A stretch of DNA of 23,719 nucleotides from a virus (taxonomy: Duplodnaviria > Heunggongvirae > Uroviricota > Caudoviricetes). The notes below the pieces were generated by a model. That model saw only the letters and a program-made list of their open reading frames with translations. It searched no databases and was not told the origin of the DNA. Shown piece after piece: positions 19,612 to 22,083 of this stretch; position 1 is the stretch's first letter, and every line of letters begins with the position of its first letter. The stretch is from IMG/VR virus record IMGVR_UViG_2671180296_000011, positions 1 through 23,719 of that record; one strand, 5' to 3'. Made by a program: the position numbers and the translations under genes.

Positions 19612-22083
19612 ATGAGTAAAGTCTTTATTTGCGCCGCCATTCCGGACGAACAGGCAATAAAAGAAGAGGGCGCAGTTGCTGTAGCCACTGCCATTGAAGC
19701 CGGTGATGAACGCCGCGCCCGTGCCAAATTTACCTGGCAATTCCTGGAGCAATATCCTGCTGCTCAGGACTGCGCTTATAAATTTCTTGTCTGCGAAGAT
19801 AAACCCGGCATGCCCCGCCCTGCTATCGACTCCTGGGATACCGAATATATGCAGGAAAACCGCTGGGATGAGGAATCCGCTTCCTTTATTCCGGTCGAAC
19901 CAGAATCCGATCCGATGAACGTCAATTTTGACAAGCTGTCCCTTGAAGTACAGAACGCGGTCCTGGTTAAGTTCGGTACATGTGAAAACATCACCGTTGA
20001 TATGGTGATTAGTGCACAGGAATTGTTGCAAGAGGACATGGCAACATTCGACGGGCATATCGTTGAGGCATTGATGAAAATGCCTGAAGTTAACGTCATG
20101 TATTCAGAGCTTAAGCTGCTCGCCATCGGGTGGGTTAAACATAAATGTAAGCCGGGTGCAAAATGGCCTGAGATCCAGACAGAATTACGCACATGGAAAA
20201 AACGTCGCGAAGGCGAACGCAAAGAAACCGGGAAATACATGTCTGTTGTAGATCTCGCCCGCGCCAGAGTCAACCGGCAGAACACTGAAAACTCAACAGG
20301 AAAAAACCACCCTGTCACTGCCGCCATTCGTCGCGAATACAAGCAGACATGGAAAACACTGGATGAAGAACTGGCCTACGCTTTCTGGCCTGGTGATATT
20401 GATGCCGGAAACATTGACGGCAGCATCCATCGCTGGGCAAAAAATGAAGTTATCGACAAAGATCGCGAAGACTGGAAGCGCATTTCCGCATCAATGCGCA
20501 AACAACCCGATGCCGTCCGCTACGACCGTCAGACTATTTTTGGTCTTGTCCGTGAGCGTCCGATCGACATTCACAAAGATCCCGTAGCACTGAACAAATA
20601 CATCACTGAATACCTGGCGACAAAGGGCGTATTTGAGGATGAAGAAACAGACCAGAACACTGCTGATATTCTCCAGCCGTCAGCAGCACAAACTGATGCA
20701 GTGGAAACTGAAGTATCTGATACCCAAAAAAATGAAAGCACGCTGGAAACTGAACCATCTGTAGAGCGTGAGGGGCCGTTCTACTTCCTTTTCACAGATA
20801 AGGATGGCGAAAAATATGGTCGTGCAAACAAACTTTCTGGTCTGAATAAGGCGCTGGCTGCAGGGGCTACTGAAATCACGAAAGAAGAATATTTTGCCCG
20901 CAAAAACGGTACATACTCAGGCTCACAACAAAATACTGGTGCATCTGACACGACCGCACAACCAGAGCCGGTAAAAGTTACCGCTGACGAAGTAAACAAA
21001 ATTATGCAGGCAGCCAATATCAGCCAGCCTGACGCTAATGAACTGCTTGCTGCCTCTCGCGGAGAATTTGTTGCAGGGATTAGCGACCCGAATGATCCGA
21101 AATGGGTGAAGGGGATTGAAACCCGCGATTCAGTGAATCAGAACCAGCAAGAAACGGAACAGAACGACCAGAAAGCGGAACAAAACAGCCCAAATGCGTT
21201 ACAAAACGAGCCAGAAACGAAACAATCCGAACCAGTAGTGCAACAGGAACCGGAAAAAGTCTGCACCGCCTGCGGTCAGAGCGGTGGCGGCAACTGCCCC
21301 GATTGTGGCGCTGTCATGGGCAACGCAACATACCAGGAAACATTCGATGAAGAGAATCAGGTTGAAGCTCAGGAGAATGATCCGGAGGAAATGGAAGGCG
21401 CTGAACATCCACACAAGGAGAACACTGGCGGCAATCAGCATCACGCCAGCGATAGTGAAACTGGCGAGGCGGCAGATCCCTTAATTAAGGTGAATGGTCA
21501 TCACAATCTCACATCCACCAGCAGAGCGGGGATTCATCTGATGATCGACATTGAAACCATGGGAAAAAATCCCAATGCCGCGATTATCTCAATAGGCGCA
21601 ATATTTTTCGATCCACAAACCGGAGATATGGGACCGGAATTTAGCAAGACCATCGATCTGGATACTGCTGGCGGAGTTATTGATCGTGACGTCATTAAAT
21701 GGTGGCTGAAGCAATCACGTGAAGCGCAGTCTGCCATTCTGACCGATGAAATCCCGTTAGATGATGCACTACTGCAATTGCGGGAATTTATCGCCGAAAA
21801 CTCCGGTGAATTTTTTGTTCAGGTCTGGGGAAATGGAGCCAACTTCGACAACGTGATTTTACGCCGTTCATACGAACGGCAGGGGATCCCCTGCCCCTGG
21901 CACTACCACAACGATCGCGATGTACGCACAATCGTTGAGCTAGGGAAAGCCATAGACTTCGATGCCAGAACAGCTATCCCATTCGAAGGTGAGCGCCACA
22001 ATGCACTTGATGACGCCCGTTACCAGGCAAAATACGTTTCAGCTATCTGGCAAAAACTGATCCCGAGTCAGGCTGATTTTTAA
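19612..22083 (+). CDS. large multi-domain protein (823 aa): N-terminal unknown domain, acidic linker, CxxC...CxxC zinc ribbon, C-terminal DnaQ-like DEDDh 3'-5' exonuclease
   Basis: Uninterrupted 2.47-kb ORF. C-terminal motifs MIDIETMG (Exo I), WGNGANFDNVIL (Exo II) and HNALDDARYQAKY (Exo III, H-x4-D). Zinc ribbon CTACGQSGGGNCPDCG. Occupies the ydfE position after ydfD. Confidence 0.6.
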   Translation: MSKVFICAAIPDEQAIKEEGAVAVATAIEAGDERRARAKFTWQFLEQYPAAQDCAYKFLVCEDKPGMPRPAIDSWDTEYMQENRWDEESASFIPVEPESDPMNVNFDKLSLEVQNAVLVKFGTCENITVDMVISAQELLQEDMATFDGHIVEALMKMPEVNVMYSELKLLAIGWVKHKCKPGAKWPEIQTELRTWKKRREGERKETGKYMSVVDLARARVNRQNTENSTGKNHPVTAAIRREYKQTWKTLDEELAYAFWPGDIDAGNIDGSIHRWAKNEVIDKDREDWKRISASMRKQPDAVRYDRQTIFGLVRERPIDIHKDPVALNKYITEYLATKGVFEDEETDQNTADILQPSAAQTDAVETEVSDTQKNESTLETEPSVEREGPFYFLFTDKDGEKYGRANKLSGLNKALAAGATEITKEEYFARKNGTYSGSQQNTGASDTTAQPEPVKVTADEVNKIMQAANISQPDANELLAASRGEFVAGISDPNDPKWVKGIETRDSVNQNQQETEQNDQKAEQNSPNALQNEPETKQSEPVVQQEPEKVCTACGQSGGGNCPDCGAVMGNATYQETFDEENQVEAQENDPEEMEGAEHPHKENTGGNQHHASDSETGEAADPLIKVNGHHNLTSTSRAGIHLMIDIETMGKNPNAAIISIGAIFFDPQTGDMGPEFSKTIDLDTAGGVIDRDVIKWWLKQSREAQSAILTDEIPLDDALLQLREFIAENSGEFFVQVWGNGANFDNVILRRSYERQGIPCPWHYHNDRDVRTIVELGKAIDFDARTAIPFEGERHNALDDARYQAKYVSAIWQKLIPSQADF

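Follow-up and report, generated by a model that had tools for sequence, protein, structure and literature searches.

What can a lambdoid prophage do with a large exonuclease-like protein that is encoded where lambda carries exo, bet and gam, when no annealase gene accompanies it? The question is raised by a window of 23,719 nucleotides (nt; the whole stretch of DNA that was analysed, positions 1 to 23,719 of IMG/VR virus record IMGVR_UViG_2671180296_000011), in which a single long open reading frame (ORF), starting with ATG and preceded about 10 nt upstream by GAGG, encodes a protein of 823 amino acids (aa; Table 1). The protein is an identical member of a family that is already catalogued and very common: it is 100% identical to the deposited E. 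coli protein P0001, the PHROG 2082 profile covers it end to end (1773 bits; all 823 residues against all 823 model positions), and about two thirds of the complete E. coli genomes (3535 of 5426) contain a copy that spans 80% of the gene or more. Orthologues are also found in the isolated phages mEp460_ev081, Tritos, HannyBb and PhiR42_1. The names that PGAP gives to the copies are 'exonuclease' or '3'-5' exonuclease', and in other cases '3'-5' exoribonuclease' or '3'-5' exoribonuclease domain-containing protein'; literature searches (ydfE with exonuclease; Rv2179c) returned nothing on the 823-aa protein. As described below, its sequence indicates a mosaic related to RecE of the Rac prophage; of its identity and architecture we are practically certain.

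Domain architecture and relation to RecE

An earlier note on this DNA, made from the letters alone, had read the protein as an N-terminal domain followed by an acidic linker, a zinc ribbon and a C-terminal DEDDh exonuclease. Pfam and direct reading of the sequence bore out this order and every feature listed, but the RecE origin of aa 474-624 had been missed. This segment, which includes the zinc ribbon, is 74% identical over 151 residues to residues 471-614 of Rac-SA53 RecE (E 1e-68) and about 83% identical to recE at the nucleotide level, and it stops where the nuclease domains start, therefore marking the junction of a domain swap. Because aa 474-624 is a RecE segment, the 823-aa protein is, as judged from its sequence, a RecE mosaic with another head (the module D1, not PF06630) and another nuclease (DEDDh, not PD-(D/E)XK). 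Pfam places PF06630 and a PD-(D/E)XK/DUF3799 nuclease in Rac-SA53 RecE and neither of them in the 823-aa protein, so that the 5'-3' nuclease of RecE appears to have been replaced by a predicted DexA-type DEDDh exonuclease of 3'-5' polarity. The NCBIfam RecE equivalog model NF007259 scored 280.9 bits, below its cutoff of 1269, and aligned only aa 222-626, with residues 245-603 of RecE. Both proteins are large, acidic and built of several modules, and RecE lies in the corresponding place of the lambdoid early-left operon, just upstream of its xis/int end; however, RecE has a recT partner, whereas none follows the 823-aa gene. The function of the N-terminal domain of RecE is unknown, yet full-length RecE improves linear-linear recombination (PMC11611040, a 2023 review).

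The protein has a net charge of -55 and an isoelectric point of 4.7, with acidic Q/E/N-rich stretches at aa 433-546 and aa 571-641, and four of its ten cysteines form the zinc ribbon. The ribbon is conserved in RecE and is optional in the wider family, because some relatives lack it. Selection on the individual regions was estimated as the ratio of nonsynonymous to synonymous substitution rates (dN/dS) in comparisons with 77 co-linear homologues, which share one common reference sequence, so that the pairs are not independent. Over the whole gene dN/dS was 0.19, while the ribbon region (aa 547-570) gave 0.07. An AlphaFold2 (AF2) model was made of aa 1-470 from an alignment with relatives 40-50% identical; folding of the full length was dropped, since non-homologous C-termini were misaligned in the alignment with annealase fusions (see below). 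The model contains three confident modules, D1, D2 and D3, with disordered linkers between them. D1 (dN/dS 0.09) has the residues W75, W85, F146, H149, W185, P186 and W195 invariant across relatives with a DEDDh domain and relatives with a Rad52-like fusion. D2 (dN/dS 0.09) gave a BLASTP match of aa 262-335 to residues 295-367 of RecE (E 0.002). D3 had the lowest dN/dS of all regions, 0.05, and its invariant residues are G388, P389, F390, Y391, R404, A405, N406, K407, L411, E421 and I422. The linkers gave much higher values (0.41 for aa 205-244, 0.76 for aa 344-387 and 0.60 for aa 571-641); folded modules are therefore under purifying selection, with dN/dS of 0.05-0.17, and the linkers are nearly neutral.

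A short conserved peptide between scaffold and effector was observed in many members of the family, at aa 474-497 (nt 21031-21102) of this protein. It reads 'LLAAxRGEFVxGISDPxDxxW' or 'GxGxFSI(D/E)GL', has equivalents in RecE, in P0139 and in proteins that join a RecE-type head to a DEDDh domain, and by its sequence looks like a linear interaction motif.

At aa 642-813 the C-terminal domain matches PF16473 (Rv2179c-like) with an E value of 1.7e-66 and a score of 223.7 bits, above the cutoff of 27, and the match extends over positions 2-177 of the 177 in the model. All three Exo motifs of a DnaQ-like domain, as had been noticed earlier, are present (D646-x-E648, D746 and H796-x4-D801), and in an alignment their residues fall on the catalytic DxE, D and Hx4D of a T4-type DexA. 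Each of these five residues is conserved in at least 96% of 93 cluster representatives that are 30-94% identical, and the domain has a dN/dS of 0.17. In PDB searches with the single sequence, T4 DexA (8kel/8ken; PMC12153337, NAR 2025) gave the only matches (E 6e-6), and a profile of the clade ranked T4 DexA 8kel (E 4e-22) before DnaQ (5e-6) and oligoribonucleases (about 1e-3). These comparisons indicate an active site that is intact, under selection and closest to that of the DNA exonuclease DexA, its best solved relative, with which it shares the DEDDh subfamily PF16473. T4 DexA is a stand-alone protein of 227 aa, whereas here the domain forms the last 180 residues of a scaffold protein, is about 26-29% identical to DexA and lacks its extra loops. 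Stand-alone versions of the domain are also frequent in phages, in 1379 records.

The only point that would favour DNA as the substrate is this proximity to DexA, and the protein might instead be an exoribonuclease like Rv2179c, processing DicF or the transcripts of its operon, or degrading host RNAs or nanoRNAs in lytic growth. The names given by Pfam and, in part, by PGAP would agree with such a role, as would dicF, about 650 nt upstream in the same operon, and the oligoribonucleases among the weaker PDB profile matches. Nevertheless, DexA is by far the nearest relative, no Rv2179c chain occurs among the PDB sequence or profile matches of the domain, and the scaffold is shared only with effectors of DNA recombination, which makes an RNA substrate quite improbable in our estimation.

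DexA relatives also suggest a defence function. EcD, a stand-alone E. coli homologue of DexA, digests T4 DNA containing 5-hydroxymethylcytosine (5hmC), not unmodified double-stranded DNA, and on a plasmid it protects cells against T4 (PMC12153337). By this precedent the 823-aa protein, as a DexA relative with conserved catalytic residues, could be an HREX-type prophage defence nuclease that degrades modified (e.g. 5hmC-containing) DNA of superinfecting T-even phages. DicB, encoded in the same operon as the exonuclease, is a phage-resistance factor. Moreover, PMC12153337 assigns 38% of the bacterial DexA homologues to Escherichia and states that K-12 has none of these genes, which fits the truncation of ydfE in that strain. 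On the other hand, W152 of DexA, which is needed for recognition of 5hmC, pairs with H766 in an alignment of 26% identity, with W763 three residues upstream, and the region of D169 aligns poorly. The gene lies deep in a repressor-controlled early-left operon, in a region where promoter-like sites are no commoner than by chance, and the exonuclease gene of Tritos does not appear among the prophage genes with above-background expression in the lysogen transcriptome (PMC9928086, Table 1). PADLOC returned a weak, generic DEDDh match of 21 bits and no membership in a catalogued defence system. EcD itself is, as judged from its cloning primers, a different protein with other termini, and it appears to be stand-alone, its cloned sequence beginning with an ATG of its own; its termini occur in no representative protein, and in a scan of genome contigs the 20-mer of the reverse primer matched only by chance, in a gene for an unrelated ATPase in the metagenome-assembled genome of a Firmicute. 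Since a defence role would also leave unexplained the scaffold common to RecE and the annealase fusions, we regard it as unlikely.

A scaffold with alternative C-termini

An exhaustive family search over cluster representatives, followed by domain scans, revealed that D1-D2-D3 occurs with several C-termini. It is joined to a DEDDh domain in the 823-aa protein and P0121, to a RecE-type PD-(D/E)XK nuclease in P0138, to a domain of 280 residues without a Pfam match above threshold in P0139, P0144, P0145, P0174 and P0231, and to a short tail in P0131. Furthermore, the RecE-type head (PF06630) is combined with a DEDDh domain in P0124, P0137, P0127 and others. D3 accompanies every kind of C-terminal effector among the proteins headed by D1. 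The short tail, a fourth alternative C-terminus of about 45-100 residues with the motif 'LTIAALHGLCANP' (P0131 aa 600-702; P0152 aa 639-681), had no Pfam match and was seen on D1-type as well as on RecE-type heads.

The gene neighbourhoods of these variants differ. RecT is encoded downstream of the PD-(D/E)XK variant in both loci that extend past the gene, and Gp157 lies directly downstream of the gene for the 280-residue variant in nine of nine loci, four of which also have Gam (in L006) or a sequence similar to it (in three more) upstream. The 280-residue domain itself gave a sub-threshold Pfam match to Rad52_Rad22 (E 0.004). When an AF2 model of P0139 (predicted local distance difference test score, pLDDT, 78) was compared with the PDB by Foldseek, the five best matches were all the N-terminal domain of human RAD52, with E values of 7e-6 to 3e-5, probability 1.0 and a template modelling score of about 0.5 on the target. 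The C-terminus of the P0139 family had no match by sequence when it was used as a profile against the PDB, so the Rad52 fold came from the structure search alone. According to these results, P0139-type proteins are probably fusions of the scaffold to an annealase, with a C-terminus made of a Rad52-fold domain and a long helical tail where the 823-aa protein has its nuclease. They share D1 (about 40-50% identity) and D3 (about 50-70%) with the 823-aa protein, carry the precomputed Pfam families PF27430 and PF27432 as it does, and are encoded in the corresponding place of the early-left operon, a few genes upstream of xis and int.

The Rad52-like proteins (P0139, P0144, P0145, P0174, P0231 and P0271-P0387; loci L006:4989-7337, L007-L013 and L017) constitute a large prophage family of Enterobacteriaceae that is annotated 'exodeoxyribonuclease VIII' and has no nuclease domain. 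They may be the 'RecE-2' proteins of PMC12315714, which lack a nuclease domain and whose roles are unknown. Many proteins annotated 'exodeoxyribonuclease VIII' are devoid of any nuclease domain, and at least one such family, with its Rad52-fold domain, probably consists of annealases. Since the scaffold is found fused to a RecE-type nuclease and to a Rad52-like annealase, it can be tied to phage recombination. Of its variants, it is the DEDDh form that occurs alone, without recombination partner genes.

A recombination module without annealase and its possible role

The window is a Qin/Tritos-type (DicB-type) lambdoid prophage, in which a dicA-like repressor gene is followed by small ORFs like ydfA, ydfB and ydfC, DicF, dicB, ydfD, the exonuclease gene, xis and int. 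The opposite strand carries cII-like, O-like and P-like genes, Ren, a DUF968/HNH gene, RusA, Q and a DNA methyltransferase gene. The matching gene order is annotated in E. coli chromosomes, in locus L001 and in phage Tritos, and syntenic loci annotate dicB and DUF1482-YdfD at the corresponding positions. We compared the window with 80 related viral loci from IMG/VR: dicB and ydfD lie 5' of the gene in 75 of them, and in 77 of 79 the distance from the gene to the prophage end is 1.3-2.3 kb, enough for xis and int. This synteny, between dicB/ydfD and xis/int, and the sister proteins at the corresponding position support the earlier assignment of the gene to the position of a recombination (Rec) module. 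The gene is located inside the DicA-repressed early-left operon, and a scan of the region for promoters and terminators, in which sites were no commoner than in shuffled sequence, found no independent promoter or internal terminator.

K-12 carries a pseudogene, ydfE, of which the gene in the window is the intact form. In the K-12-type chromosome only nt 1-767 of the gene remain, at 87.6% identity, followed by an IS2 fragment and a truncated integrase gene; the fragment corresponds to the first 255 codons (aa 1-255) and is annotated as an incomplete 'exonuclease' pseudogene directly after ydfD. It is taken to be ydfE because this position agrees with the published operon order of dicB, ydfD and then the pseudogenes ydfE, insD7 and intQ (PMC11430063). 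The truncation of ydfE mentioned in the earlier note is accordingly real, and its suggestion of an intact ancestral form holds in so far as the K-12 copy is an IS2-truncated derivative; ancestry is shown in no further sense.

The pseudogene in K-12, together with the existence of truncated and split copies and the description of small Rec modules as 'somewhat suspect' (PMC12315714), might suggest that the gene is a decaying, functionless remnant of defective prophages. This reading is already contradicted by the data on selection and intactness, and we consider it highly improbable. All folded modules show the low dN/dS values given above, the gene is kept in the viable phage Tritos (PMC9928086), the copies in 3535 complete genomes cover at least 80% of it, the ORF of the window has no frameshift, and an intact ORF of 823-826 aa is present in 79 of the 80 related loci, the motif filter having returned no ORF in the 80th. 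As an example of a split orthologue, that of phage vB_EcoM-606R7 (L004:2670-5113) is divided between the ORFs 2670-3590 and 3746-5113, each of which is annotated 'exodeoxyribonuclease VIII'; the split may reflect a frameshift, a deletion or a sequencing artefact.

No annealase, Gam or Gp157 gene was found in the window by PHROG scans of its ORFs, and xis and int follow immediately 3' of the exonuclease gene, therefore leaving no room for an annealase gene. RecT, Rad52-like proteins, Gam and Gp157 were likewise found in none of the 80 related loci (up to 6 kb upstream, and downstream to the locus end, mostly 1.3-2.3 kb), which extends the earlier observation that no Bet- or RecT-like annealase is visible nearby. 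In addition, tblastn with the RecE nuclease gave no match in these loci, and PHROG scans of the window ORFs found no single-stranded DNA-binding protein (SSB), for which no separate search was made. The window is rich in Chi sites (GCTGGTGG): it contains ten against 0.70 expected, about 14-fold more, a number reached in none of 100 shuffles. They start at 2613, 4968, 6331, 7146, 7462, 10076, 10128, 10534, 10592 and 21515 (span 2613-21522), and seven of the ten are on the minus strand of the window, which should correspond to the top strand of lambda because int, xis and the exonuclease gene point rightward here and leftward on the lambda map.

A module of this kind has been described. In a classification of lambdoid Rec modules, Tritos is the prototype of a class with a nuclease and without annealase, SSB or anti-RecBCD function, and rich in Chi (class B in Table 1 of PMC12315714, Genome Research 2025). 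The DNA sequence of the Tritos orthologue, TRITO_27, shows 89.5% identity to that of the gene in the window, the gene order is identical, and Tritos has 11 Chi sites against 1.5 expected, one of them inside the orthologue. The window has the features that define the class, namely a nuclease, no annealase or anti-RecBCD gene and many Chi sites mainly on the top strand, and is another member of the Tritos-type, nuclease-only Rec module, from which we found no difference of substance. The position of this module and the occurrence of DnaQ-like 3'-5' nucleases in lambdoid Rec modules are thus already published, in a study that does not dissect the domains of the protein (PMC12315714). Tritos forms plaques and virions (PMC9928086), and viable phages such as this one keep the gene as the sole gene of the recombination module.

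We propose that the 823-aa protein is an accessory DNA end-processing enzyme of an annealase-free Rec module that relies on host RecBCD and RecA. It would be transcribed with dicF, dicB, ydfD, xis and int from the DicA-repressed early-left operon, presumably on induction or infection. The scaffold, as its common domains suggest, would bring the nuclease to the DNA substrate or partner that is used by RecE and the Rad52-like fusions, and the DEDDh domain would remove nucleotides from DNA 3' ends by two-metal chemistry, if both its activity and its preference for DNA resemble those of T4 DexA. Recombination would presumably proceed through host RecBCD and RecA, since the prophage has no annealase or RecBCD inhibitor of its own and is rich in Chi. 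The exonuclease may trim 3' tails or flaps to give ends usable by RecBCD or RecA, and would probably not itself generate the recombinogenic strand. We give about an even chance to this explanation as a whole and at most an even chance to a role in DNA recombination or replication in general; the specific step of end blunting is less probable than that.

Several points weigh against this proposal. E. coli exonucleases acting on single-stranded DNA are needed to blunt ends for RecBCD, and this is the sole basis of the end-blunting idea. DnaQ-like 3'-5' exonucleases usually inhibit recombination by destroying 3' tails, and Rec modules of one or two genes have been called 'somewhat suspect' (PMC12315714). 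In addition, the Pfam family PF16473 is named after an exoribonuclease, Rv2179c, and the structural relatives of the N-terminal modules are weak matches to generic folds, none of them of known function.

An opposite function is also conceivable, in which the nuclease acts against recombination or against defence by destroying 3' single-stranded DNA tails, small DNA or oligonucleotides, recombination intermediates of the host or of a competitor, or defence DNA or signalling molecules. Early-left operons near int often carry genes for host takeover and counter-defence, and the wide distribution of the DEDDh domain as a stand-alone protein in phages would agree with such a function. It would also accord with the inhibitory effect on recombination that is general among DnaQ-like 3'-5' exonucleases (PMC12315714). 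However, no candidate for a target can be named, the enzymes to which the scaffold is elsewhere fused promote recombination, and a Chi-rich genome argues that recombination is wanted rather than suppressed; we therefore think that this function has a low probability.

Returning to end processing in recombination, a more specific and rather doubtful extension is that the D1-D2-D3 scaffold, whether the zinc ribbon is present or not, serves as a common adaptor and delivers interchangeable heads (a nuclease of 5'-3' or 3'-5' polarity, a Rad52-like annealase or a small 'tail' domain) to one target at DNA ends or the replisome. The DEDDh version would then represent an annealase-free strategy, in which a 3'-5' exonuclease prepares ends for RecBCD and Chi converts RecBCD to a recombinase. 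If this were true, the partner of the scaffold would also explain the N-terminal region of RecE. Two gaps meet in the 823-aa protein: the part played by the approximately 560 N-terminal residues of RecE, which boost linear-linear recombineering, and the recombination-dependent growth of lambdoid phages that have no Red, RecET or Gam. Because different heads occur naturally on one scaffold, the family already provides an experiment on the contribution of nuclease polarity.

Coordinates and further features of the window

The coordinates of the gene, its domains and its neighbours are collected in Table 1.

Table 1. Position of the exonuclease gene, of its encoded modules and of neighbouring features in the window.
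Feature	Position (nt)	Strand	Basis
YdfE-family 'exonuclease', whole gene (PHROG 2082)	19612..22083	+	ORF listing, PHROG profile match
Module D1 (aa 1-204), small alpha/beta subdomain, then helical bundle	19612..20223	+	AF2 pLDDT about 90 or higher
Module D2 (aa 245-343), helical, distant homologue of RecE middle region	20344..20640	+	pLDDT about 90
Module D3 (aa 388-432), beta-hairpin/helix mini-domain, invariant GPFY...RANK...EI	20773..20907	+	pLDDT about 84
RecE-shared segment (aa 474-624): LLAAxRGEFVxGISDPNDPKW motif, Q/E-rich stretch, zinc ribbon, acidic tail	21031..21483	+	
Four-Cys zinc ribbon C551-x2-C554-x7-C562-x2-C565 (CxxC at aa 551-554 and 562-565)	21262..21306	+	direct sequence reading
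Predicted DEDDh 3'-5' exonuclease domain, DexA/Rv2179c-like (aa 642-823)	21535..22080	+	Pfam PF16473
Chi site (GCTGGTGG) inside the gene	21515..21522	-	one of 10 in window
dicA-type repressor, head of operon region	16898..17305	+	135-aa helix-turn-helix ORF, position as dicA of K-12 Qin
DicF small RNA	18914..18965	+	Rfam RF00039, 73.8 bits against gathering score 48
dicB	19142..19330	+	full-length PHROG 1251 match
ydfD	19327..19518	+	full-length PHROG 1092 match
Excisionase	22153..22404	+	PHROG 539; starts 70 nt past exonuclease stop codon
Integrase	22424 to window end 23719	+	ORF listing

Some further features were noticed in the window. Between ydfC and DicF, a 119-aa ORF on the minus strand (18205-18564) has a hydrophobic central stretch and matches PHROG 6315, with no Pfam or PADLOC match; from where it lies and how it is oriented, it may be a moron or an exclusion gene. 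A 194-aa ORF at 12207-12791 (plus strand) contains an isochorismatase-family domain (Pfam E 1.4e-9), has no PHROG match and is probably a moron. It sits in an AT-rich island (GC content 0.37 at 12001-13000) beside a hok/sok locus, recognised by Rfam from the sok antitoxin RNA at 11776-11950 (minus strand), as in Qin and Tritos. Lastly, Rfam also identified the small RNA STnc100 at 4648-4846 (minus strand) and two tRNA genes within the prophage, at 5681-5754 and 5859-5931, both on the minus strand.

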